The position numbers and the translations under genes were made by a program. Below, in pieces: positions 33,248 to 56,651 of a DNA stretch of 64,000 nucleotides (the stretch's first letter is position 1; each line of letters starts with the position of its first letter). The notes below the pieces were generated by a model. That model ran no database searches and was not told where the DNA came from. It was given only the letters and a program-made list of their open reading frames with translations. The DNA is from Mycoplasma sp. Bg1 (GTDB taxonomy: Bacteria > Bacillota_I > Bacilli_A > Mycoplasmatales > Hepatoplasmataceae): contig LSMX01000003.1 of the NCBI GenBank assembly GCA_001641205.1, forward strand, positions 120,177-184,176. The letters are read 5' to 3'.

Positions 33248-34954
33248 TTAATCCTCCTTCTTTCTAGTAATTGGGGCTTTCATCATTTCATCTTTTCCAG
33301 AAGTTGCTTTTGGAAAAGCAATTACATCACGAATTGAATTGGTATTTAATAAAATTGATAAAATACGATCGAGTCCAAGGGCAATTCCACCATGTTGAGG
33401 AATTCCATATTGTTGTGCTTCAAGTAATCACCCAAACATAGTTTTGGTTTCCTCTGGTGAAAGACCAAGAATTTCAAAAACCTTTTCTTGAAGTTTAAAA
33501 TCTGAAAATCTAATTGCTCCTCCACCAATTTCAGAGCCGTTAAGGACAATATCATAAGCCTTAGACATAAGAGAAAGTAAGGTTTTTTGATCATTAATGC
33601 TTGTCTTTTTATAAAGCTCTAAATCTTTATCAACAACTGCAGTAAAAGGATTATGCATTGCTTCTAATTTATTATCCTTATTTAAAGTAAAAAGTGGCCA
33701 ATTAGTTACTCAAACAAAATTGAATTGTTTAGAATTAGTTAAGGCAAATTTTTGACCAAGTTCAAAACGAATTCGACCAAGAAATTCACAAGCATTTGTC
33801 CATGAATCAATTACCACTAAAAGGGTAAAGGTTGATCATGAAGTGAGTTTTAAAATTTCTTTAAGTTCTTTTTCTGAAATACCCTTTAATGAGCCTTTGA
33901 TAATTTGTCCTTTTTCAACTTGTAAACTTGCAAGACCAATTCCACCTTCAAGTTTAACTTTATCTTCTAGTTTTTTTATTTCAGTATTTGAAAAAGTTTG
34001 TTCAAAAAATAATCCTTTTACTATTTTTTTATTTTTTAAACCATTTTTTATGAATTTAAGATCTGTTTTTGTAAAAAGTGTAGTTAAATCAACCAGATGA
34101 TTTTCAAATCTAGTATCTGGTTTATCTAACCCATAAAGATTCAAGGCATCAACATAGCTAATTTCTGCAAAAGAAATTTTAGCTTTTGAGGTTTTAAATT
34201 CCTTAACTATTTTAATAAGCAATTGCTTTATTATTTCTTGAATTTCTTTTTCTGAGGTAAAGGCTTTTTCTAAATCTAATTGGGTAAATTCAAGTTGGCG
34301 ATCAGCCCTTGAATCTTCATCCCGAAAGCATTTAGCAATTTGATAATATTTTTCAATTCCTCCATACATTAATAACTGTTTATAAACTTGAGGAGATTGA
34401 GCTAATGCATAATATTTTCCTAAATGGTTCATGCTTAAAACTTCAAGCTCATTTGCTCCTCCTGGAGTTGGTTTTGTAATAATTGGTGTTTCAACTTCAA
34501 CAAAACCCTTTTCATAAAAGAAATTACGGATTATATGATTAAATTTTGCTCTTACAAGTAAAGTATTATGAATTACTGGTCTTCTAAGATCAAGATAACG
34601 ATATTCCATTCTTTTTTGTTCAAGAGCATCAGTTTCATCTGCAATTATTAAAGGAGTTTGCTTTGCCTCATTAATAATTACAATATTAGTTGCTAGAATT
34701 TCAATTTCTCCAGAAGCTAATTTTGGGTTTGGTTCTTTTCTTTTTGCAACTTTACCCTCAACAGTAATTACATATTCACTTCTTAATAAAAGAGCAATTT
34801 TATGAGCTGAAGAAGTTTTGCTTACTACAATTTGGGTAATTCCATCTTCATTTCTTAAATCAAGAAAAACTAAATCACCTAAACGTCTTGCTTTATTTAC
34901 TCAACCGTTTAGGATTACTTTTTCTCCAATATTTTTTATATTTAAAATACTCAT
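33248..34954 (-). CDS. aspS: aspartate--tRNA ligase
   Basis: [18 protein letters not shown](TGA)[20 protein letters not shown] (OB fold). Class II motifs [26 protein letters not shown]. Confidence 0.93.
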
Positions 34955-40958: not shown

Positions 40959-41918
40959 TTATTTTTTAATTGTAGAAACTGCTTTTAGGGTTACTTCTTT
41001 TAAAGTAGAAACAGATTCAATAAATTGTTTTTTTTCTTTTTCTGAAAGATCTAATTCAAAAGTACGAATAATTCCTTCTTTTCCAATTAAACAAGGAATT
41101 CCTGCATAAGTTCCTTCCATCCCATATTCTCCAGAAAGAAGTGCTCCCGTTGCAAAGACTCTTTTTTCATCTCTTAAAATTGCTCTTGCAATATCAGTAA
41201 GGTTCATTCCAATTCCATAATAGGTTGCTCTTTTACGATCAATAATTTCATAAGCTTTTTTTCAAACAGTTTCATGAACTTTTGCAAGTTTTTCCTCTGT
41301 AAGTCCATATTTATCATATAGTGTTGATAGTTTAACTCCATTTAAAGTTGCAACTGAAAATGTTGAAACTGATGAATCACCATGTTCTCCCATTACATAA
41401 ATTCCAAAATCTCTTGGTGCTGCGTCTTCGATTAATTTAGATAATTCTAATTTTAATCTTGATGTATCAAGTGCACATGATGCTGAAATAACTTTACTTG
41501 GTTCAAATCCTGTAACTTGTTGAAAAACTGTAGTCATCACATCAACAGGATTTGAAGCAACAATTGTCACTCCTTCAAACCCATTTGCTTTAACTTGATC
41601 AGCAATTGATTTCATAATTTTGACATTATCTTCAACCATTGCAAGTCTTGTTTCACCTGGTTTTTGAGGTCTCCCTGCAGTAATTACAAGTAAATCTGCA
41701 TCTTTTACAAGTTCATAACCACCATTTTCAACAATATAATCTGTTGCTGTAGTTCCTCTTCCATCTTCAAGATCAAGTTTTTGACCATAAGCAACTTCTT
41801 CATTAATATCGATAATTCCATAATATTTTGCTAAATTTTGATTTGTTGCTGCATATAAGAATGACATCCCGACAAATCCCGCACCAATAAGCACTACTTT
41901 GTTTGTTGTATTTTTCAT
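40959..41918 (-). CDS. ldh: L-lactate dehydrogenase (canonical specificity loop)
   Basis: VVLIGAGFVGMS (Rossmann fold), loop ITAGRPQKPGETR (Gln102/Arg109 equivalents), LDTSRL, GEHGDS. Two same-frame pieces joined by TGA. Confidence 0.88.
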
Positions 41919-42087: not shown

Positions 42088-42321
42088 ATGAAAACAGAAA
42101 CAGACATAAAAACATTTTATTATTTAGGATTAATCTTTTTATTTATAGGATTATCAATATTTTTTGGAGTATTAGCAGGTTACTGTCATGAAGGAATAAA
42201 ATCTGCAAAGGATAGTTCTTATTATACTGCAACATTAAATCAGCATTTAATTTACTATTCATTTATTCTTTTGATATTTTTGCAATTCTTTTTACAATAT
42301 ATTCATTTAATAATTTTTTAA
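42088..42321 (+). CDS. small 2-TM membrane protein (77 aa), member of the repeated TM-module family
   Basis: ..KTFYYLGLIFLFIGLSIFFGVLAGY...LIYYSFILLIFLQFFLQYIHLIIF. Same layout as the two modules inside 48771..49517. Confidence 0.5.
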   Translation: MKTETDIKTFYYLGLIFLFIGLSIFFGVLAGYCHEGIKSAKDSSYYTATLNQHLIYYSFILLIFLQFFLQYIHLIIF

Positions 42322-42542
42322 ATTGTTTAAACGAAAAGAAAAAATTAAAATATGAAACTAATTACAATCCTATTAATTTTAAAAATACTCAAAATTAATA
42401 AAATAATAGGATTAAATATACTGTTTTAAATTAAAACCCTCAAAACTTTAATTTTTTATTTTATAAATAGCCTCCAACAAGAAAGCACTTTATTTTTAGT
42501 ATAATTATATTATTATATTCACAAAATAAAGGAAAAATAACT

Positions 42543-42977
42543 ATGCCACGAAGAAGAAGGGGTAAACCCATTATGACAACTGCTGTAACTATGAGTGCAA
42601 TGTCAAATAGAAAAACAAATAAAATGCAACAACAGCAAATGCAACAACAACAAACTCAGCAAACTCAACAACAACAAAATTATGCTACAGCACAAGACCC
42701 AATGCAACCTGCAACTCCTGTTCAACCAGAAGTAGTTGCACCAATAAAAGAAGAAGAACAAGCAGATCAAATTAGAACTATTGCTTCTGCAATTTCACTT
42801 TATCGAAAAAAAGGTTTAAGTTTTGCAGAAATCTTTACCAAAGTTGAAGCTTATAATAAAGGTTTTAAAAGTGAAGAAGATTTTAAAAAAGGATATTTAG
42901 ACTTTGTAAATGAAGAAGCAATTACTAATCCTAAATGAGAATCTGTACTTGAATTTGAACTAGAGCACCAAGAATAA
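42543..42977 (+). CDS. Arg/Gln-rich protein with conserved C-terminal domain, paralog A (144 aa)
   Basis: MPRRRRGKPIMTTAVTMSAMSNRKTNKMQQQQMQQQQTQQ.. then IRTIASAISLYRKKGLSFAEIFTKVEAYNKGF..W(TGA)ESVLEFELEHQE. RBS aaaggaaaaa and a tataat box lie upstream. Confidence 0.7.
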
Positions 42978-43017: not shown

Positions 43018-43047
43018 AAAAAAATAGGAATTAATTCCTATTTTTTT
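43018..43047. terminator. terminator hairpin (aaaaataggaatt/aattcctattttt family), copy 1
   Basis: Palindrome centred at 43032/43033 and flanked by A-run and T-run, so it could act in both directions (Q-rich gene on plus, ldh-like 2 on minus). Confidence 0.6.
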
Positions 43048-43128
43048 ATTTTCTTTATGTAATTTAAAATTTCCACTTTACAAAAAGCATTAATTCTTAT
43101 ATTAAGACTAATCTTATCTTTTATAATT

Positions 43129-44097
43129 TTAATTCTCTTCCCTAATTATAGAAAATGCTTTTAAGTTTAATTCTTTTAAAATTGAAATAGATTTAATAAA
43201 TTTAGCTTTTTCTTTTTCTGAAAGATCTAATTCGAAAGTTCTAATAATTCCTTCTTTTCCAATTAAACATGGAATTGCTGCATAAGTTCCTGCAATTCCA
43301 TATTCCCCCGAAAGAAGTGCTCCCGTTGCAAAAACTCTTTTTTCATCTCTTAAAACTGAACAAGCAATATCAACTAAAACCATTCCAATTCCATAACTAG
43401 TTAATCCTTTACGATTAAAAATTTCATAAGCTTTTTTTCAAACAGTTTCATGAACTTTAGCAAGTTTTTCTTCTGTAAGTCCATATTCTTCATATAATGT
43501 TGATAACTTAACTCCTTTTAATGTTGCAGCTGAAAATGCTGCAACAGAAGAATCTCCGTGTTCTCCCATTATATAAACATCAAAATCTTTTGGGGCTGCA
43601 TTTTCAATAAGTTTTGAAAGTTCTATTTTAAGTCTTGAAGAATCAAGAACACATGAAGCTGAAATTACTTTATTTGGTTCAATTCCAGTAATATGTTGAT
43701 AAATTATTGAAGCAGCTTCAAGTGGAGCTGAGGCAATAATAGTTATTCCTTTAAATCCGCTTGCTTTAACTTGAACTGCAATTGATTTCATAATTTTTAC
43801 AGTTCCTTCTAATAAATCATGTCTTGTTCCACCTGGTTTTAATGGTCCTCCCCCAGCAGCAATAATAAGTAAATCTGCATCTTTTAGAAGTTCATATCCA
43901 CCATCTTCTACAATATAATCACTTTCAATAGATCCTCTTCCATCTTCAAGATCAAGTTTTTGGCCATGAGCAAATTCACTTTTTAAATCAATAATTCCAT
44001 AATATTTTGCTAAATTTTGGTTTATTGCTGCATATAAAAATGATGTTCCTACATATCCAGCACCAATAACTACTACTTTATTTGTTGTATTTTCCAT
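43129..44097 (-). CDS. LDH-family 2-hydroxyacid dehydrogenase, variant specificity loop (paralog 2)
   Basis: VVVIGAGYVGTS, LDSSRL, GEHGDS, but the loop reads IAAGGGPLKPGGTR. That is one extra residue, Leu in place of Gln102, and Gly in place of the Glu before Thr-Arg. Confidence 0.8.
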
Positions 44098-44228: not shown

Positions 44229-45197
44229 TTAATTCATTTCTTCAATTATAGAAAGTGCTTTTACTTTTAAATCTTTTAAAACCAAAACAGATTTAATAAA
44301 TTGAGTTTTTTCTTTTTCTGAAAGTTCTAATTCAAAAGTACGAATAATACCTTCTTTTCCAATTAAGCAAGGAATTCCAGCATAAGTTCCTGCAATTCCA
44401 TATTCTCCTGAAAGAAGTGCTCCCGTTGCAAACATTCTTTTTTCATCTCTTAAAATTGAACGTGAAATGTCAACTAAAGTCATAGCAATTCCATAACAAG
44501 TTAATCCTTTACGATTAAAAATTTCATAACCTTTTCTTCAAACAGCTTCATGAACTTTAGCAAGTTTTTCTTCTGTAAGTCCATACTCATCATATAATGT
44601 TGAAAGTTTAACTCCTTTTAATGTTGCAACTGAAAAAGCAGAAACTGATGAATCTCCATGTTCTCCCATTACATAAATTCCAAAATCTTTTGGAGCTACA
44701 TTTTCAATAAGTTTTGAAAGTTCTAATTTAAGTCTTGAAGAATCAAGTGCACATGAAGCTGAAATTACTTTATTTGGTTCAAATCCAGTAACATGTTGAT
44801 AAATTGTTGTTGCTATATCAACTGGATTTGAAGCAATAACAGTTACTCCTTTAAAATCATTTGCTTTAACAGAAACTGCAATTGATTTCATAATTTTTGC
44901 GGTATCTTCAAGTAAATCAAGTCTTGTTCCGCCTGGTTTTAATGGCCCACCACCAGCAGCAATTATAAGCAAATCTGCATCTTTTACAAGTTCATAACCA
45001 CCATCTTCTACGATATAATCAGTTCCAATAGATCCTCTTCCATCTTCAAGATCAAGTTTTTGGCCATGAGCCATTTCTCTATTTAAATCAATAATTCCAT
45101 AATTTTTTGCTAAATTTTGGTTTATTGCTGCATATAGAAATGAAGTTCCTACATATCCGGCCCCAATAACTACTACTTTATTTGTTGTATTTTCCAT
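44229..45197 (-). CDS. LDH-family 2-hydroxyacid dehydrogenase, variant specificity loop (paralog 3)
   Basis: Same variant loop IAAGGGPLKPGGTR. Very similar to paralog 2 along its whole length. Confidence 0.8.
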
Positions 45198-45453: not shown

Positions 45454-45879
45454 ATGCCAAGAAGAAGAAGGGGAAGACCTCTTATGACAACCGCTGTAAC
45501 AATGAGTGCATTATCAAATAGAAAAACAAATAAAATGCAACAACAACAAATGCAGCAAGATCAACAAACGCAACAACAAAACTATGCAACAGCACAACAA
45601 CCAATGCAACCTGTTGCGCCTATTCAACAAGAAGTAGTTGCGCCAATACAAAAAGAAGAACAAACAGATCAAATTAGAACTATTGCTTCTGCAATTTCCC
45701 TTTATCGAAAAAAAGGATTAAATTTTGCAGAAATCTTTACTAAAGTAGAAGCTTATAATAAAGGCTATAAAAATGAAGATGACTTTAAAAAAGGATATTT
45801 AGATTTTGTAAATGAAGAAGCAATTAGTAACGCTAAATGAGAATCTGTACTTGAATTTGAATTAGAAAACCAAGAATAA
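45454..45879 (+). CDS. Arg/Gln-rich protein with conserved C-terminal domain, paralog B (141 aa)
   Basis: MPRRRRGRPLMTTAVTMSALSNRKTNKMQQQQMQQDQQTQQQ.. ..IRTIASAISLYRKKGLNFAEIFTKVEAYNKGY..W(TGA)ESVLEFELENQE. Its upstream region is homologous to that of paralog A. Confidence 0.7.
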
Positions 45880-45908: not shown

Positions 45909-45941
45909 AAAAAAAATAGGAATTAAATTCCTATTTTTTTT
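45909..45941. terminator. terminator hairpin (ataggaatt/aattcctat family), copy 2
   Basis: aaaaaaaataggaattaaattcctatttttttt. Confidence 0.6.
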
Positions 45942-45956
45942 ATTATTATCTAAATT

Positions 45957-46354
45957 CTAATATGTATGTGTTGCTTCTTTTCCTTCAAGAATATCAACAC
46001 CGTTTGAAGTTCCAATTCTACTTGCCCCAGCATTAATATATGCTTCAGCATCTTCGTAGGTTCTAACTCCACCTGCAGCTTTAATTTTTGTATCAGGATT
46101 AATATTATCTTTCATAATTTTTACTGCTTCTAAAGTAGCTACTGAACAATCAATTCCTGTAGAAGTTTTTACAAAATCTCATTTTGCATTACTTGCAATT
46201 CTTGATGCTTTTGCAATTTGATCATCGCTAAGAAGAGCAATTTCTAAAATAATTTTAATTGTTGTTCCTTCTGTTGCAGCTCTAATTGCTTTTAGCTCAT
46301 TTTCAACGTATTCTCAATCTCCTGATTTAATCATGGAAACATTAATTACATAAT
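45957..46354 (-). pseudogene. deoC 3' fragment (about 132 C-terminal codons), copy 1
   Basis: Near-identical (a handful of mismatches by eye) to 49854..50251 of the intact deoC, including the stop codon. Homology ends abruptly after ..aattacataat at 46354. No 5' part and no start codon. Confidence 0.85.
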
Positions 46355-46555: not shown

Positions 46556-47176
46556 TTAGTTATTTATAATATTAAATATTTTTCTTGCAAACTGAAAATA
46601 TTCTTCTGTAGGTATTATTTTTGTTATTGGAATATCATAATTACTATGTACAATTTTATTTCTTTCAGAAATTATTTTTTTTCAAAGTTCATTATCATTA
46701 TTGGTTAAATTTTCAAAATTATCAATAATTAAAGAATGATAAAAATGATTATTTTTATTTTTTGTATTTAACAAAATAGAAATATCTTTTTTAACATTAC
46801 AGTTATTTCAAGTTTTGTTATTTAAAAAATCACTAATAAGTTTTATAAATAATTTTTTATTAAAATCATCAATATCCTCTCTTAACAAAATTTTGCCAGT
46901 AATTCTACTTATTTTTTCTCTATTATTGATATTTTCATCACTTAAAGATCTTTCAAAAAAATATTCAGACATTTTTGAAATAATATTTTTATCTAAAAAT
47001 TTATAACTTTCATTTTGAATACTCATTAAAACAAAATTTTTTCATTTGGTTTCTATTTCAGATACAATAAAAATATAAAAATACTCCACAATTATTTTTT
47101 GTTTAGGTGTAGTTACATCAAAAGAACTATTTTTAAGTTTTTTTTCCAGATAATTTAAGATTTCTATGTTTTCCAT
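46556..47176 (-). CDS. HEPN-like protein (206 aa) with C-terminal R-x4-H motif
   Basis: ATG at 47176 lies 1 nt after the DUF262 stop. The C-terminus ..ELW(TGA)KKIISERNKIVHSNYDIP.. contains RNKIVH (Rx4H). Codons 46556..46700 were hand-translated. Confidence 0.5.
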
Positions 47177-47177
47177 T

Positions 47178-48407
47178 TTAAATAATTAAATAATCACTAA
47201 ATGCGGTAAAAATTTTAGTATATTTCAACATTAATTGATTATTATTTCCTGTTCCTATTTTCAAACTTAAAAAAAATTTTTTTTCTTTATCATTAATAAA
47301 AAGAGATTTATAAATTTCTTGAAATTGCTGTTTTGAAATTTTTTCAAAATCTAGATATTTAAATAAAATTAATGTTGCCTCTGCCAAAGAAATATTAATT
47401 TTATTATCAAAATTAAAAAAATTCTCATTTTTTGAATTAGAATAAATTCTAAATATTTTAATTCCATCAAAATATTCTTTTAATTTATACATTAGCTTAT
47501 TTAAATCATTAATAATTTGCTCATTTTTTTCAATAGAATTTTTTGATGCTAATTTCATATAATTGTTTATTAAATAAATAATTCTTCCATTATAATCCAA
47601 AATTTTAATAGAAATTTCATTAAAATTATTTCTACTAAGTCTTATTTTTTCATAAAAAGACAAATATCTAAAAATAAGTTCGGTGTTTTTCATTCTTTTA
47701 ACAAAAACAGAATTTAGTGTTAAGTTTTCAAAAACTTTTCACTCTAAATTATCATTAGTAAATTTTTTGATTTTAGAGTTTAAATCACTTCTATAAATTG
47801 CATTACGTAATTCTTGAGTATTTAATTTCATAGATCCTTGGTTTAATCTAGAAAAAATATCAAATTTTAAAGATTCATCAGATCCTTTTCTAATTCTTAT
47901 TGTTTGTAAAACTTGAGTTTTTAAATAATTTTGGACTCCTATATTTAATTCTTCAAATTTTTTGCCATTTAAATTTTCAAATGATTCTAAACCTCTTAAT
48001 TTTCATTCATTATGTAAAAATGTTTGAATGGTTGTTAATCTTTGGACACCATCTATAACGTCAAATTTTGAATTTGTAGTTTCAAATAAATAAACTGGAG
48101 GTATAGTAATATTAATTAAGAGTGATTCAATAAATTTTGCTCCATTTAATATTGATCAAACAAAATTTCTTTGAAATTCTGGACTAATATTTCAATCTTC
48201 ATCATCTAATCTTCTACAAATATCTTGCAATTCAATGTTGGTGGTATCTATTATTAATGATTTAGGTTTTCAACCTTTTTCTTGATTATTAGCTTCATCA
48301 CTATCAAATTCTTCTTCTTTTTCATCATAACCAGAGTTTTTTTCAAAATCATCATTTTCTTTAGTCAAAATTGGTGCAAACTCTAATTCCTTAATTTTAT
48401 TATTCAT
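47178..48407 (-). CDS. DUF262 (ParB/GmrSD N-terminal-like) domain protein, 409 aa
   Basis: ..NISPEFQRNFVW(TGA)SILNGAKFIESLLINITIPPVYLFE..FDVIDGVQRLTTIQTFL (QR..W and DGxQR motifs). Acidic N-terminal extension. No DUF1524/HNH-type C-terminal domain recognised. Confidence 0.7.
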
Positions 48408-48492
48408 AATATTCCTTTTTATAATTATATAATTTTAAATAAACTAATTTAAAATTACTTTATTATTTAAAATAAATTTTGCATTTTTATAA

Positions 48493-48518
48493 AAAAATAG
48501 GAATCTAGTTCCTATTTT
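48493..48518. terminator. terminator hairpin family, copy 3 (degenerate loop)
   Basis: aaaaataggaa tctag ttcctatttt. Confidence 0.45.
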
Positions 48519-48530
48519 AATATTTAAAAT

Positions 48531-48756
48531 CTAATATGTATGTGTTGCTTCTTTTCCTTCAAGAATATCAACACCGTTTGAAGTTCCAATTCTACTTGCC
48601 CCAGCATTAATATATGCTTCAGCATCTTCGTAGGTTCTAACTCCACCTGCAGCTTTAATTTTTGTATCAGGATTAATATTATCTTTCATAATTTTTACTG
48701 CTTCTAAAGTAGCTCCTGAACAATCAATTTTTGTAGAAGTTTTTACAAAATCTCAA
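48531..48756 (-). pseudogene. deoC 3' fragment (about 75 C-terminal codons), copy 2
   Basis: Near-identical to 49854..50079 of the intact deoC. Homology stops at ..acaaaatctca, and 15 nt further on comes the stop codon of the next gene. Confidence 0.85.
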
Positions 48757-48770
48757 TTTAAAATAATTGC

Positions 48771-49517
48771 CTATTCTTGATTTTCCAATTCAAATTCAAG
48801 TACAGATTCTCATTTTTGATTAGTAATTGCTTCTTTATTTACAAAATCTAAATATCTTTTTTTAAAGTCCTTTTCATTTTTAAAACCTTTATTATAAGCT
48901 TCAACTTTAGTAAAAATTTCTGCAAAATTTAATCCTTTTTTTCTATAAAGGGAAATTGTAGAAGCAATAGTTTTAATTTGATCTATTTGTTTTTCATATA
49001 TAGATGCATCTGTCTCTAATTGAATATGGGCAGTAGTTTGTACTAATTTTAATGGTGTTTCATTATTATATAAACAAAGTATGCTTTTTATTATTCAATA
49101 TATTGATAAAAAAATTGTAAAAATGTCTATAAAAATAAATGCAATATAGAGAGAGTTGATTCAACTTGAAATCCCTACAGAATTAAACATTAGATCATTA
49201 ATTTCTTTTGTATATATTCCAAATAAAATTGCTAAGCCAAAAAATAAGAAGAATAAACCAAAATATATAATTACTTTAAATTGGTTAATATTTATATTAT
49301 TTTTGTCTATTTCTAAACAAAATATAATTTTTATTATTCAATATATTGAAAATAAAATTGCAAAAATATCGAAAAAAACAAAACTAGTGCGCCGTGCTCC
49401 ATAATATCAATGAAAATGATGTGCAATTACCCCAAACACAATTGCTAATGCTAAAAATAAAAATAATAATCCAAAATATAATATTACTTTAAATATATTC
49501 TTCTGTTGCAAATTCAT
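48771..49517 (-). CDS. fusion protein: two tandem 2-TM modules + the conserved C-terminal domain of the Arg/Gln-rich family (248 aa)
   Basis: I translated codons 49517 down to 48972 one by one and read the remaining 3' codons down to the TAG at 48771 by eye; no TAA/TAG was seen. MNLQQKNIFKVILYFGLLFLFLALAIVFGV..FDIFAILFSIYW(TGA)IIKIIFCL / ..NQFKVIIYFGLFFLFFGLAILFGI..FIDIFTIFLSIYW(TGA)IIKSILCL, then ..DQIKTIASTISLYRKKGLNFAEIFTKVEAYNKGF..WESVLEFELENQE. Confidence 0.7.
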
Positions 49518-49803
49518 TATTTTCCCCCAACAATTTAATAGTCTTATAATTTTAATTATATATTTAATGATAAAATAATGATTTAAATATATATTTATCT
49601 CCTATTTTTAATATATAAAATTATGTAATATAATAGCAATCTTCATATAAACATTTATATTTTTAAATATTTTTATTCACAATTCCTTTTTGCAAAAAAA
49701 CTAAATAATCAAGTGATTTTTAATTTTAAATAAAAATTTATAATCAATTCTATACTAGAACATCAAGAATAAATTTATAAATAAATATCATCAAAAATAA
49801 ATT

Positions 49804-49832
49804 AAAAAATAGGAATTAACTTCCTATTTTTT
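49804..49832. terminator. terminator hairpin family, copy 4
   Basis: aaaaaataggaa ttaac ttcctatttttt, directly downstream of the intact deoC. Confidence 0.6.
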
Positions 49833-49853
49833 AATGTTTATTATTTATAAATT

Positions 49854-50713: not shown

Positions 50714-52099
50714 TTAAAATTTTTGGAAATATTCTAAATCTATTCCGTTTAATTCTAATCGCTTATTAATATAATTCTTAGTTTCTGGTGTTAAAATTGT
50801 TGAAATTAGAGAATGTTCTAATTTTTCTGATTTAATTTGCTTAACAATTTCCCCATATTCATCCTTTTTAATTCAAATATTTCCCTCTTGATCAAAAACT
50901 AATATATTTTTATCAAATAATTTATGAATAGTTGGGCCTAGTAATAAACCATTTTCAGGATCATATTTTTCATCTTTATTACATTTTATAAAATCAACAA
51001 TATGAGAAGCTTCTATTGCATACGAATTTTTCATTCCTTTAATTAAATCATTTTTATTAATAAATTCTTGTTCATTAATTTCAATATATCTTTTAATATC
51101 ATTCAATAAAAGTTGACGATATTGTACTTGTCCTGGTCTACCATTATCATTTTTTATAAAAAATTCTAAAACTTTAGATTGAATTGTTAAAATTTCTACT
51201 TTTCAATCATTTAAATATTTTTCAAATAAAAAATCATTTAATTTATTAAAGATAGTCATTGCTAAATTTAAATCATTTTTAATTAAATTTTTAATTGTTG
51301 TTTGAGTTCCGAAATGTTTTCCAATAGAAGATTTTCCACTTTTATGTGTTTTAAATAATTCTGGAAGAGGAATTTTTTGGTTTTTTTGTTTTCTTAAAAT
51401 TACTACAATATCTAAGCAAACTGGAAAATTGCTATTACATAATTCATATAAAAAGAGTGCATGTAATGAAAAGAAAATATCTCTAATTGAATAACCCTTA
51501 ATATATTTTAGATTAAAATAATTTTTATAATTATTAACAAAATTAGATGCTAAATCAATCTTATCAATAATATAATCATCAATTATTTTTGATTTAAAAA
51601 TTAGATTAAAATAATTACTTGGAGCAAAATCTTTTTGAATTTCCAAATAACCCAAGCTTGCCATAACCTCTATAAATTGTCTTAGAGTTGATTTTGCAAT
51701 TAACTTTTTAAAATTTCTTCTATCATTAAAATAATCTTCTATTTTAAAAATTCACTCTCCCTCTTTTCCAATATAAAGAGCACTAGTTAAATAAGTTAAT
51801 TTTTGATCAACTCTTTTATAAATATTTAGATAATACCGTTTTTCTTTTTTAGTCTTTTTTTGTACTTTTAAAATTGATTCTTTTCATTCAAGAAAAATTT
51901 CTTCTTTTTCTAAATCAAGATTATAAGTTTTTAATAAATAGATAAACAAATTATTTATCCGACATAAATGAGTAAAAAAATCAGTTCCCATTGTTCAAAC
52001 AAATCCTCATTGATCTTTTTTAGTAATATCATCATTCATTTCAACTTGTTTTTGATAGATTGCTTTAATTTTAGTAATTTGATCTTTTGAAAATTCCAT
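50714..52099 (-). CDS. putative type II restriction endonuclease with C-terminal HNH (HNH_2-like) nuclease motif, 461 aa
   Basis: ATG at 52099 lies 1 nt after the methylase stop and is preceded by ggagga. C-terminal ..EASHIVDFIKCNKDEKYDPENGLLLGPTIHKLFDKNILVFD. Pieces 51203 and 50873 share one frame. Confidence 0.65.
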
Positions 52100-52100
52100 C

Positions 52101-53398
52101 TTATTCCTCCAAAGTAGACATATAGTAAAATATCATTTCGATGATATTTACTGCAATTGAATTTCCTGCCTGTTTATAAAGCTTTTCTCTTGCTTGATTA
52201 TCTGTCTTAGCTCGGTATTTTTTAGTAACAAGAAGCATCTCTTTTTTAGCACTTTGATACTGCTTTTCACTAAAACCCATAAGAAGATATGCTTCTCTTG
52301 GGGTAATAAATCTTCAATTAGTATAATCAACTCCATTATTATCAAATCTTTTATTATTAAAAGCAACTGATCCACAATTTGGTAATCTATCCTGTTTTGT
52401 TGTTACTGTTGGAATATGTTTTAAATTAATATCAATGCAAGGAGAAGAATCAATCATTCTTATTCTTGAAGGAGTATTTTTAATTTGTGCTCAAAGCGAT
52501 TCTTCAAAATCTTTATTAGAAAAATCTATTAATTTCTTAATAGGTTTTTTATTTTTTGGTTGATAAATTTTACAAGTATAGATTTTTTTTAAAATAATTT
52601 CAAGATCATCTCTTGTTCCTTTTCAAGAAACTATTTCATTATTAGGATCATAAATAGAAAAAGCATAAACACGGCGTCTTTTTTGGACCATTCCAAAATC
52701 ACTTGAATAGAGCATTCCCCAAATTGTTTTATAACCTAAAAGCTCTAATTGCTCCATCCAAGCATCAAAGTCTGCTCGATGTTGTTTTTGAACTAAATTA
52801 GGAACATTTTCAAGTAGGAGGAATTTTGGTAATAAATTTGGGCGTCTCTCTCTCTCTCTCTCTCTCTCTCTTCTTGAATTGCTTTAAGATTTATTAAAAC
52901 CTTTTCAATTTCAAGAAGTAACCCTGATCTGGTATGGGCTTTTATTCCCTCATTAAAGCCGTGAAAATTACCTGCAGTAGATAAATCAGTACAAGGAAAA
53001 GAATAAGTAAGCAAGTCTACTCCATTGTTATCTTCAATTATTTTTTTTATTCTAGTAGTTGAATCTACTATAGTTCCAATGTTACTAGCAACTTTGAAAG
53101 CTTTATATCAATCAAGTTTTACTTCTTTTTTAATTGTAGAAGTATTTAAAAAAGGTTTTGATCCATCAAGACTAAAAGTATTTTTTTTAATTCAATTATC
53201 AAGTTCATCATCAGTTGGAGTTTTAATCTTACTTCGATAATTTTTATAATGAATTGCAGCATAGGACTGAGCAGCAAAAACATCCCAATCGGATGTTCCT
53301 ATAATTTCATAATCAAGAATGCCTTTACTCTTTAAGTTTTTTAGGGCAGTATTTTGTGCTCCAATTCCACTAAAAGTTTCAATAACTTTAAATTTCAT
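52101..53398 (-). pseudogene. DNA (cytosine-5)-methyltransferase, out of frame at an internal (GA)13 tract (candidate phase-variable gene)
   Basis: 5' frame: MKFKVIETFSGIGAQ (motif I), SFPCTDLS (motif IV). After the repeat, the motifs continue in another frame: RPNLLPKFLLLENVPNLV (VI), QKRRRVY (VIII), ITPREAYLLMGF, GNSIAV (X). Total length is 1298 nt, which is not a multiple of 3. Confidence 0.85.
52845..52870 (-). repeat. (GA)13 dinucleotide tract inside the methyltransferase ORF
   Basis: Thirteen tc units on the plus strand, counted directly. 12 or 15 units would restore a single 431/433-aa frame. Confidence 0.95.
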
Positions 53399-53528: not shown

Positions 53529-53543
53529 TTTTTTTTTTTTTTT
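53529..53543 (+). promoter_or_regulatory. T15 homopolymer in the divergent promoter region between the methyltransferase and surface-protein gene 1
   Basis: 15 consecutive T, counted. It ends 65 nt upstream of the ATG at 53609 and is followed by tataaat (53557..53563). Confidence 0.5.
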
Positions 53544-53608: not shown

Positions 53609-54733
53609 ATGAAGAAACAATATTTAATTGGTTTACTAGGACTTACAATAATATTTACCCCAGTTGCAAATAGTTTATTAAGTACCAATTCAAAATTATT
53701 TAATTCTACATATACAAATAATCAAATACAAGAAGAATCTATAATTAACGAAGAAAATAGCCAAGTAATTGTAAAAGATCTTGATAATGATGGAAAAGCA
53801 AGTCAGGGTGATCAAATTGATGAAATACAATTTAGTGCTAATTATGATGAATTTTATCCTCTTTATGAAGATAAATCTAAAACTACTTCATCTAATGAAT
53901 ATGGATTAAATATTTATCCAGAAAATTCACCTAATACTGTAAAACCTTTTTATAGTATTTCTTATAATCAAATTGATGAGTTAAATCAAAATCAAAATGT
54001 AGACTTTTTAAATTTTGATTTTAATTCTACTAATAATCCAACTTGAAAAATTTGAGATGCAAAACTTCCTGATAGTAGTCAAGAATTTATCATAACTGCA
54101 GAAAGCAAAAAAGATAATCATCAAGAAAAAATAATAGAAAATAATATTGGTGAGGTTTCAATTACACCATATATAAAGGATGAAAATGACTGAAGCGAAC
54201 CAAAAGTTTATGATGCAAAAGTAACCGAGAATCCAACTGGTGCATTTATGAACCCACAAGCAACTATCTCCTATGAAGTAGATTATGGTAATAATGGAGG
54301 TGACCGTGGTGGAAAAAAATATCAATTGACAAAACTAGAAATCATTAATATAAACGGTACTGAAATTAAAAATGGTACAAAATATGCAGACAAAGCAAAC
54401 CAAGGTAGCATTGGAGATGATGATTGATTGATAATACTAACTCCTAATACATATTATGATTTATATATGAAGGCAATTTTTCATGACCCTGATGATAAAA
54501 ATGCTGAAGGAATTACTCAAACAGTAAAATTTGATGATGATAGTGGCAAATTTGATACTTTTGATGATAAAGATCCTGATCCCACACCGCCCATTCCCAC
54601 ACCGCCCATTCCCACACCACCTGGTCCTTCTAGTAGTAATACAATGATAATGATTGGAATAATAATTGGAGTTATACTCTTTGTTGGAATTATTTCTTTC
54701 ATCGGATATTATTTATATAAAAAAAATAAATAA
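53609..54733 (+). CDS. surface protein family member 1 (374 aa): signal peptide, ectodomain, Pro/Thr stalk, C-terminal TM anchor
   Basis: MKKQYLIGLLGLTIIFTPVANS.. (no lipobox Cys), DLDNDGKASQGDQIDE, PTPPIPTPPIPTPPGP, then IMIGIIIGVILFVGIISFIGYYLYKKNK. Pieces 53609 and 54428 share one frame and are joined by TGA. Confidence 0.75.
54581..54620 (+). repeat. 15-bp tandem repeat encoding the PTPPI stalk (about 2.7 copies)
   Basis: cccacaccgcccatt cccacaccgcccatt cccacaccac. Confidence 0.85.
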
Positions 54734-54752
54734 TAAAGTTAAAAATAACATT

Positions 54753-54782
54753 AAAAAAAGTAGAGATATTTCTACTTTTTTT
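54753..54782 (+). terminator. rho-independent terminator after surface gene 1
   Basis: aaaaagtaga gatatt tctacttttttt. Confidence 0.6.
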
Positions 54783-54821
54783 AATTTTACTATTCATTAT
54801 GTTTTTTATTAATTGGAGTTT

Positions 54822-54995
54822 TAATCTTACATCAATTATTATAATAAATCACAACATTAAGTTGAGCAACAAAAACATTCTACTTAAAATATTTTTATAA
54901 TTTTGAAATAAAAAAATACCTTTATTCTTTAAGTTTTTTAAAGCAGTATTTTGTGCTCTAATTCTGCTAAAAATTTCAAGAACTTTAAATTTCAT
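54822..54995 (-). pseudogene. decayed copy of the methyltransferase 5' end
   Basis: MKFKVLEIFSRIRAQNTALKNLKNKG.. versus MKFKVIETFSGIGAQNTALKNLKSKG of the full gene. Internal deletions, with motif I destroyed. Homologous to about 53214..53398. Confidence 0.8.
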
Positions 54996-55193
54996 ATAAA
55001 AAATTATATGTAAAAGTAAAGATAAAACTATTGTATATAATGATTTAATAATATAGAAATTCAATATTTAAAAACATGATAATAAATCTTTTACCACATA
55101 AATTGTGTTTATCTTTTTTTTTTTTTTTGTTATTACATTATTATAAATTTATAGATAAATAGCAAATTTTAAGAAAGGAATAAGTAAATAAAT
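54996..55193. repeat. duplicate of the 53399..53608 divergent intergenic/promoter region
   Basis: Same sequence blocks (..taatatagaaattcaat.., ..ttaccacataaattgtgtttatc-Tn-gttatt.., aagaaaggaataagtaaataaatATG). Confidence 0.85.
55113..55128 (+). promoter_or_regulatory. T16 homopolymer upstream of surface-protein gene 2
   Basis: 16 consecutive T, counted. Same position as the T15 tract in the paralogous promoter. Confidence 0.5.
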
Positions 55194-56651
55194 ATGAAGA
55201 AACAATATTTAATTGGTTTACTAGGACTTACAGTAATATTTACCCCACTTGCAAATAGTTTATTAAGTACCAATTCAAAATTATTTAATTCTACATATGC
55301 AAATAATCAAATACAAAAAGAATCTATAATTAATGAAGAAAATAGCCAAGTAATAGTTAAAGATCTTGATCATGATGGAAAAGTAAGTCAAGGAGATCAA
55401 ATTGATGAAATACAATTTAGTGCTAATTATGATGAATTTTATCCTCTTTATGAAGATGAAACTAAAACTACTTTATCTAATGAATATGGATTAAATATTT
55501 ATCCAAAAAATTCGCCCAATACTATAAAACCTTTTTATAGTATTTCTTATAATAAAATTAATGAGTTAAATCAAAATCAAAATGTAGACTTTTTAAATTT
55601 TGATTTTAATTCTACTAATAATTCAACTTGAAAAATTTGAGATGCAAAACTTCCTGATAGCAGTCAAGAATTTATTATAACTGCAGAAAGTAAAAAAAAT
55701 AATAATCAAGAAAAAATAATAGAAAATAATATTGGTGAAGTTGCAATTTTATCATATGTAAACAATGCAAATGGGCAAGATAACCCAACAATAACTTCTG
55801 CAAGAGTAACCAAAAAAACATTTTTTTCTACATACATAAATGTTAAGGTTGACTATGAAGTAGATCTTGGCAATAATGGAACTAGTAGAATTAATAATAA
55901 ATACAATTTAACAGAAATTATAATCACTAATAAATTGGATCATAATAATCCAGTATATTCTGTGGATAAATCTAGTGCTAAGGGCCACTTAACTTTTGAC
56001 CTGCCACTTGGTGTAGACTATGATTTAAGCATGACAGCAATTTTTGATGACCCCGCGAGTTCTTCTAAAAAATCTGATACAGCTGACATCATAGGTGGTA
56101 ATATTGTAGATACTGAAAGAAAGCCTAAATTTGATTATCCAACTGCAGTTAAAATTGATACGAAAAATAATATTTTAGAAATTAAGGGAGAAATTTCTAC
56201 TAATGGTTCTAAAATAAATTCATTGTGGCTTACAAATGAAAATCATGATGTTGAAACTTGAATATATAAATATGATGATAAAGGAGATACATTTTATTAT
56301 GATATCTGGACTCCTGATTACACTGAAAATACTACAGATAGTCTTAAAAATTATAATTTAGGAGTGTGATACACCCTAAATGTAAATACCGATTATTATT
56401 CTATTGGTCTTTGACAAGTTTTAGAAAAAGATAGAACAACCGGTGAAGATTTAAGTTATTTGGAAGATGATTCTTATTATCAAGGCAATACTTCTGGAGG
56501 AGATGATTCTTCTGATGGAGGCGGTTCTGAAGGAGGTGGTTCTTCCAACAATAATAATACAATGATAATAATTGTAATAATAATTGGAATTGTACTTTTT
56601 GTTGGAGCTATTTCTTTCATCGGATATTATTTATATAAAAAAAATAAATAA
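55194..56651 (+). CDS. surface protein family member 2 (485 aa)
   Basis: N-terminal 145 aa are nearly identical to member 1. Gly/Ser/Asp-rich stalk (GGDDSSDGGGSEGGGSS) and the same C-terminal anchor (IGIVLFVGAISFIGYYLYKKNK). Pieces 55194, 55935 and 56460 share one frame. Confidence 0.75.

Follow-up and report, generated by a model that had tools for sequence, protein, structure and literature searches.

Tandem membrane hairpins joined to the C-terminal domain of small Arg/Gln-rich proteins in Mycoplasma sp. Bg1

Domains that occur both within one protein and separately in the products of neighbouring genes raise the question of whether the parts work together or were brought together by recombination. 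A locus of Mycoplasma sp. Bg1, which was described together with its sister Mycoplasma sp. Bg2 from the gut of a deep-sea isopod in one paper, raises this question for a membrane hairpin and a small soluble domain. The DNA analysed, referred to below as the window, is the whole stretch of 64,000 nucleotides from contig LSMX01000003.1, and it is low in GC (approximately 20-30%). A first-pass annotation of the window had described a minus-strand gene, F248, in which two repeats of a two-transmembrane (2-TM) hairpin precede the domain ending the nearby Arg/Gln-rich (RQ) proteins. From the split and fused arrangements it had concluded that the soluble domain works at the membrane together with the TM module.

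The fused gene and its parts

The gene and the features that surround it are as follows.

48771..49517, minus strand: F248, an intact gene of 248 codons under translation table 4, encoding four TM helices and a C-terminal domain (CTD), with five TGA codons read as Trp
49308..49517, minus strand: 2-TM hairpin module 1, residues 1-70, HMM domain 6e-26
49068..49307, minus strand: 2-TM hairpin module 2, residues 71-150, with invariant Asp131, HMM domain 7e-32
48984..49067, minus strand: linker, residues 151-178 (28 residues), of low model confidence
48771..48983, minus strand: CTD, residues 179-248 and the stop, a predicted four-helix domain common to the RQ proteins; repeats I1 and I2
48531..48770, minus strand: RQ-type 3' flank (16 nt) followed by a deoC 3' fragment that starts from codon 147, abutting the F248 stop; repeats D1 and I1
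49524..49528, minus strand: Shine-Dalgarno-like GGGGG, 7-11 nt 5' of the F248 ATG, read from the sequence
49803..49846, no strand assigned: terminator-like palindrome between deoC and F248; repeat D9; -14.8 kcal/mol, z = -5.9

Translation under table 4 gives 248 codons closed by TAG, with exactly five in-frame TGA codons at positions 37, 60, 119, 141 and 236, and these account for the absence of the gene from the ORF track, as had been proposed. TGA is also found in frame in housekeeping genes of the window, e.g., deoC and ldh, and the TGA of Trp141 corresponds to TGG in the Bg2 ortholog. With the base composition found locally, a frame of 276 codons would stay open by chance with a probability of approximately 5e-11. 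A 248-aa protein identical to F248 is already present as an NCBI record; the gene was thus missed only by the table-11 ORF track, owing to its TGA codons for Trp. The terminator-like palindrome between deoC and F248 suggests that the gene has its own promoter. A promoter scan in this AT-rich region returned fewer matches than shuffles, and the Rfam and tRNA scans of the region detected no RNA features. At the other end of the gene, the junction at the F248 stop is a recombination junction.

Hydropathy places the TM helices at residues approximately 11-32, 45-66, 80-101 and 122-145. In module 1, helix 1 carries the pattern Y-x-G-L..LF..L...FG and helix 2 the invariant Asp50 (DIFAILFSIYWIIK). 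The two modules share 49% identity, and their Smith-Waterman score of 154, compared with 35 +/- 6.6 in composition-preserving shuffles (z = 18), confirms the tandem hairpin repeat described earlier; in the DNA they constitute repeats D10 and D11. Ten positions are invariant in the eight modules of the two genomes (Y14, G16, L17, L20, F21, L24, F28, D50, I54 and I58), and the Asp lies inside helix 2 in every one of them. The homology of the modules overall reaches z = 7-27, with free and fused modules forming separate subfamilies. The loop within each hairpin ranges from 8 to 23 residues and has no conservation.

The 70 residues of the CTD are 87% identical to the end of one RQ protein of the window, RQ_A, and 89% identical to that of the other, RQ_B. 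Pairwise alignment therefore bears out its identification as the domain that ends the Arg/Gln-rich proteins. The nucleotide identity to the RQ ends is 90-91% and begins three or four codons before the DQI motif. Modelling of the CTD gave four helices with a mean pLDDT of 80; the AlphaFold model of full-length F248 had a pLDDT of 56.6 and was not used for packing or fold search. The dN/dS of the CTD is 0.08-0.34 in all pairs, and the family-invariant residues of the CTD and of the modules are all kept in F248.

The separate counterparts of these parts in the window are the following.

42088..42398, plus strand: free 2-TM module gene TM77, annotated as 77 aa ending at 42321, frameshifted near 42272, with a stop at 42396..42398
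42543..42977, plus strand: RQ_A, a soluble protein of 144 aa consisting of a polybasic N-terminus, a Gln-rich linker and the CTD
45454..45879, plus strand: RQ_B, a paralog of RQ_A of 141 aa, with no TM module upstream

The RQ proteins begin with M-P/G-RRR(R)GKP, followed by TTAVTMSxxSNRKTNK, with 8 K/R in 27 residues, and continue into a flexible Gln/Pro-rich linker with 18 Gln in 43 residues. They contain no hydrophobic segment, the maximum 19-residue hydropathy (KD19) of RQ_B being 0.50. An amphipathic membrane-targeting helix at the RQ N-terminus was rejected on its hydrophobic moment (muH approximately 0.08). A Sec or Tat signal is likewise unsupported at this maximum hydropathy of 0.50. 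To our knowledge, Mollicutes have no Tat system.

Split and fused forms in related genomes

The first-pass annotation had placed a free-standing single hairpin module at 42088..42321, immediately upstream of RQ_A. Its homology and its position stand, but it is not intact as called, helix 2 being frameshifted. The product as called is homologous to the F248 modules at z = 7-8. The helix-2 motif DIFAILFxIY (DIFAILFTIY) lies in the +2 frame from 42273, which runs to the stop at 42396..42398, and the module HMM matches TM77 in two frames separately. A one-base correction beside the T run at approximately 42269-42272 yields a protein of 103 aa, which scores 117 (z = 19) against module 1, where the product as called scores 83, and which matches its Bg2 counterpart at z = 27. 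The frameshift may reflect a real pseudogene or an assembly error. TM77 is the only free hairpin module of the window.

Mycoplasma sp. Bg2 holds the ortholog of the fused gene on contig LSMY01000002.1. Its product, F305 (P0002), has 305 aa, comprising three hairpins and the CTD, and is syntenic with F248. The Bg2 gene order is methyltransferase, HNH, deoC and the fused gene, then on the opposite strand RQ, TM165 and TM94, followed by ldh, a large membrane protein and hisS. TM94 and TM165 are free hairpin genes directly upstream of the RQ gene, on the strand opposite to F305; hairpin genes thus precede the RQ gene directly and on its own strand in both genomes. The search for split and fused versions that had been suggested earlier found both states, and both are kept in Bg2. 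Decayed hairpin copies occur in both genomes, in the window and in Bg2. The Bg2 copy is a frameshifted 2-TM module (MQKLLYLRLFILFLGLSISFGVW...) in the interval from the RQ gene to the fused gene's 3' end (L001 4387..4603, minus strand), whose helix 1 is matched by the HMM at E = 4e-9 and whose helix 2, in another frame, at E = 0.02.

The dS between F248 and F305 is 0.51-0.53 and equals that of deoC, ldh, hisS and HNH (0.50-0.63), which identifies the two fused genes as orthologs. Their dN/dS is 0.46 in the TM part and 0.34 in the CTD, as compared with 0.11-0.22 in housekeeping genes, so that the fused gene evolves at two to three times the ratio of its housekeeping neighbours. By these ratios, purifying selection acts on the TM part of the fused gene as well as on its CTD. 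In alignment, the linker of F248 falls on the beginning of the third F305 hairpin and is therefore probably the remnant of a hairpin module lost in F248.

A different history is recorded in the CTDs. In a quartet of copies, 10 informative sites group the CTDs by genome and 2 by type, fused or free, and the CTD dS is 0.22 between F248 and RQ_B as against 0.53 between F248 and F305. Since the CTDs group by genome while the TM parts are orthologous, these comparisons indicate gene conversion between fused and free CTDs as the simplest reading.

Which side of the membrane the CTD faces, a point raised in the first-pass annotation, was approached with a positive-inside count on F248 and F305. Because each module is a hairpin, the N-terminus, the connectors between modules and the CTD would all lie on one side of the membrane. 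F305 has 12 K/R in the connecting segments and 2 in the hairpin loops, and F248 approximately 6 and 3, which is a weak count; the free modules carry Lys-rich tails. By the positive-inside rule alone, the CTD of the fused protein is predicted to be cytoplasmic. This agrees with the absence of signals in the RQ proteins, which are expected in the cytoplasm.

The two domains have a very narrow distribution. A search of 5.8 billion clustered proteins with F248 retrieved only itself, the two RQ proteins and the 305-aa protein of Bg2. An exhaustive CTD profile search of 1.84 billion representatives added three proteins only, and with one exception (P0007, a match to half of the CTD) it confined the domain to three mycoplasma MAGs. 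Two word-indexed searches were also included in the wider survey, and nothing beyond the three MAGs was found except P0007. No relatives were detected in JGI metagenome contigs, IMG/VR, plasmids or phages, the last two searched by tblastn. Pfam, PHROGs, PADLOC and NCBIfam gave nothing significant for F248, RQ_A, RQ_B, TM77 (as called or corrected), F305 or TM165. The best match in a sequence profile search of the PDB had E = 0.4, and Foldseek with the CTD model reached at best E = 6.4 against the PDB and 3.1 against BFVD. The family is thus an orphan one, found in three MAGs among approximately 15 billion proteins, and could be registered as two new domains.

The third of these MAGs, a Mycoplasmataceae genome (GCA_013139135.1 / Logan SRR10375099), encodes an RQ-type protein of 123/132 aa between a murQ-like gene and a hydrophobic ORF of 57 aa, with no hairpin module. 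This very hydrophobic ORF contains LLIVDIILYL and lies directly 3' of the RQ homolog (L005 1749..1922, L004 941..1114). It was considered as a hidden hairpin module and rejected, with z = 0.9-2.6 and no HMM match. That a small membrane ORF accompanies the RQ gene in the third MAG is nonetheless suggestive. A further RQ paralog of Bg2, P0006, is a divergent protein of 120 aa with approximately 39% identity, encoded between dinB and a Cof-type hydrolase, a housekeeping context, at L003 6001..6363 (positions 34109..34471 of the Bg2 contig); no counterpart of it was found in the 64-kb window. P0007 is a repeat protein of 1248 aa that matches the second half of the CTD profile in five stretches (E = 4e-6). 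The match runs through repeats of the pattern Y-x-DFVN-x-x-GMTGPEW-x-x-L-R-Y/F-T. P0007 has no Pfam domain, and its resemblance to the CTD may stem from distant homology of a helix-hairpin motif or from chance that the repetition reinforces.

That RQ-type proteins lacking TM modules occur in the third MAG and as the divergent paralog of Bg2 suggests that the soluble RQ form is older and wider than the fused form. The hairpin module and the fusion appear to be confined to the Bg lineage.

Readings of the fusion

The reading that we favour, with a probability of approximately 0.55, is that F248 is a functional, lineage-specific and membrane-tethered paralog of the small cytoplasmic RQ family, with its CTD in the cytoplasm. 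In the common ancestor with Bg2, local recombination would have joined a CTD copy to tandem copies of the 2-TM hairpin adjoining the RQ gene, giving a product that would have four TM helices here and six in Bg2. With both termini in the cytoplasm, a flexible linker would keep the CTD at the membrane's inner face. The hairpins would probably serve as a self-associating anchor, in which the invariant intramembrane Asp and the conserved Gly are maintained and the outer loops are free to vary. Since fused and free copies are kept similar by gene conversion, the CTD probably has the same role whether tethered or free, and most likely binds a single cytoplasmic partner. The raised dN/dS, the lost module and the decayed hairpin copies fit relaxed constraint and fast turnover.

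The claim that the soluble domain works at the membrane with the TM module divides at this point: the split and fused states are real and are kept in Bg2, but the functional link does not follow from one event at one unstable locus. That claim treats the two states as a Rosetta-stone pair, a relationship of domain fusion or fission reportedly defined by Marcotte et al. in 1999 and by Enright et al. in 1999. The free hairpin and RQ proteins would then form a non-covalent membrane complex equal to the fused protein, which we regard as possible, though on the unlikely side. As in such pairs, the 2-TM module and the RQ protein match non-overlapping parts of F248, the modules at z = 7-19 against TM77 as called or corrected and the CTD at 87-89% identity against RQ_A and RQ_B, and both states are kept in a second genome. 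A working association would also be consistent with the placement, in both genomes, of hairpin genes directly upstream of an RQ gene and in its orientation, with the retention of the fusion in both species, with the predicted cytoplasmic side of the CTD in the fused form and with the homogenisation of CTDs between fused and free forms. However, the fused and split forms here share one genome and one locus, and the parts were already neighbours, which is not the situation of a Rosetta-stone pair. Instead of independent recurrence, there is one orthologous locus in two sister MAGs and no case in the other collections; fusion and adjacency each represent one event and are not repeated evidence. 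Recombination can fuse neighbours that have no functional link, and this locus is full of duplications and remnants. Moreover, no hairpin module adjoins most of the free CTD genes, three out of five (RQ_B, P0006 and the homolog of the third MAG), the only free module of the window is frameshifted, the free and fused modules are distinct subfamilies, and the N-terminal segment of the RQ proteins forms no amphipathic membrane helix (muH approximately 0.08). As the evidence stands, a single fusion within one locus of a recombining region is a weak basis for a functional inference. A link between hairpin and CTD, if real, would offer a first handle on two unannotated protein families and a membrane-proximal role for the RQ proteins, as well as a compact example of how reduced genomes build membrane proteins from small neighbouring genes by duplication, fusion and gene conversion.

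The same instability could mean that F248 is an accidental recombination chimera with no specific function, heading for decay. The three ldh genes, the three pieces of deoC and the deoC fragment fused directly to the F248 stop speak for such an origin, and the loss of a module relative to Bg2, the frameshift of TM77, the decayed Bg2 remnant and the raised dN/dS point in the same direction. Nevertheless, we judge this reading clearly unlikely, given that the open frame has a chance probability of approximately 5e-11, that the ortholog is intact at a dS of approximately 0.5 with a dN/dS of 0.34-0.46 in both halves, that the family-invariant residues of CTD and modules are all kept, and that F248 is a transcription unit of its own, marked by a good ribosome-binding site and a terminator upstream. 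The locus also resembles the multigene families of Mollicutes in its number of modules, two or three between the species, and in its decayed copies, gene conversion and nearby phase-variable repeats. It differs from them in that F248 is no lipoprotein or surface repeat antigen, the varying unit being a membrane hairpin and the conserved part predicted to be cytoplasmic. The phenomenon, in which neighbouring genes fuse at a Mollicutes locus of fast turnover, is familiar; it is the hairpin and CTD domains that are without known relatives.

A very unlikely elaboration of the tethered-paralog reading would make the tandem hairpins an ion- or proton-binding bundle or ring, gated by the CTD or coupled through it to a cytoplasmic partner, with the free RQ proteins as soluble competitors or regulators of that same partner. 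If true, it would reveal an undescribed small signalling or transport module of the membrane, confined to mycoplasmas of the deep-sea isopod gut. The hairpin resembles the proteolipid c-subunits of F/V/A-type ATPases (PF00137), which are 2-TM hairpins with a conserved carboxylate in helix 2 and have produced 4- and 6-TM forms by tandem duplication or triplication. They differ from the proteins described here in several respects: F248 has no Pfam or NCBIfam match and TM77 none in Pfam; helix 1 of F248 has only isolated Gly residues (YxGL, FG) and no Gly-rich motif, and the loop is variable; F248 carries an appended soluble CTD, and no ATPase operon accompanies it.

The surroundings of F248 invite the further suggestion that the hairpin-CTD protein is the membrane effector of an anti-phage or abortive-infection system in a defence island, a reading that we consider highly improbable. 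TM effectors are common in defence systems, and an HNH restriction enzyme, a split m5C methyltransferase and a pair of NsnA-like and HEPN-like genes lie nearby. Like the 2-TM and 4-TM anti-phage effectors (TM effectors of CBASS, SLATT), F248 combines multi-pass TM segments with a small soluble domain in the vicinity of defence genes. Unlike them, it has neither a PADLOC match nor a partner signalling enzyme, and the nearby cassette is a later insertion, missing from the Bg2 locus. Only the neighbours match defence models (NsnA, REase/HNH); F248, RQ and TM77 match nothing in PADLOC, PHROGs or Pfam, other RQ paralogs occur in housekeeping contexts, and phage, plasmid and viral collections hold no relatives.

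Class II (2-TM) holins and small phage membrane proteins were also compared. TM94 and TM165 resemble them as small 2-TM units with charged C-terminal tails, but PHROGs gave only E = 0.23, the neighbours are deoC, ldh and restriction genes with no lysis cassette or prophage, and the phage and viral collections contain no relatives. An ion-conducting ring or pore, regulated by the CTD and built from hairpins of a divergent proteolipid-like (ATP synthase c-subunit type) or holin-like kind, is barely credible, for beside the invariant helix-2 carboxylate, the tandem multiplication to 4- and 6-TM forms and that faint PHROG holin match stand the lack of a Pfam ATP-synt_C or holin match, the lack of a GxGxGxG motif, loops that vary where termini are conserved (the opposite of c-subunits) and a gene context with no ATPase or lysis genes.

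Duplications and repeats around the fused gene

Several elements set the window apart from Bg2. The ldh paralogs number three and the RQ genes two, the deoC 3' end is present in triplicate, and a pair of NsnA-like and HEPN-like genes has been inserted. The ldh paralogs (40959..41918, 43129..44097 and 44229..45197, minus strand) share 81-87% DNA identity and belong to the repeat families D2-D5; Bg2 has a single ldh. Two of the three are divergently paired with a TM/RQ unit, which identifies ldh plus RQ as the duplicated unit.

The cassette of NsnA-like and HEPN-like genes (46556..48407, minus strand) is flanked by direct copies of the deoC 3' end at 45957..46334 and 48531..48754. The NsnA-like product is a GmrSD_N/DUF262 protein (PADLOC, 1.5e-65), and its partner is weakly HEPN-like (RiboL-PSP, E = 0.005). 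The cassette is absent from the syntenic Bg2 locus and is probably a later insertion of defence genes.

A palindrome composed of an A-run, AGGAAT..ATTCCT and a T-run occurs four times (43018..43061, 45910..45953, 48491..48534 and 49803..49846), following RQ_A, RQ_B, the deoC fragment and deoC, respectively, with fold z scores of -3 to -6. It looks like a bidirectional intrinsic terminator that was carried along with the duplicated segments.

Simple repeats are found in the flanking genes. A (GA)13.5 run at 52845..52871 lies within the m5C DNA methyltransferase gene (52101..53398, minus strand), which is split into an N-terminal ORF at 52793..53398 and a C-terminal ORF at 52101..52757 and adjoins the HNH restriction enzyme gene at 50714..52099. 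The methyltransferase looks like a phase-variable gene subject to slipped-strand changes. Two poly-T(15) tracts (53529..53543 and 55114..55128) are located approximately 65-80 nt upstream of the paralogs 53609..54733 and 55194..56651, whose products combine a signal-like N-terminus with a Pro-rich stalk (PTPPIPTPP) and a TM anchor at the C-terminus. Each tract is a candidate phase-variable promoter. Between these surface-protein paralogs, a short ORF at 54690..54995 on the minus strand, starting with MKFKVLEIFSRIRAQNTALKNLKNKGI, is a degenerate second copy of the N-terminus of the m5C methyltransferase and provides further evidence of segmental duplication in the region.
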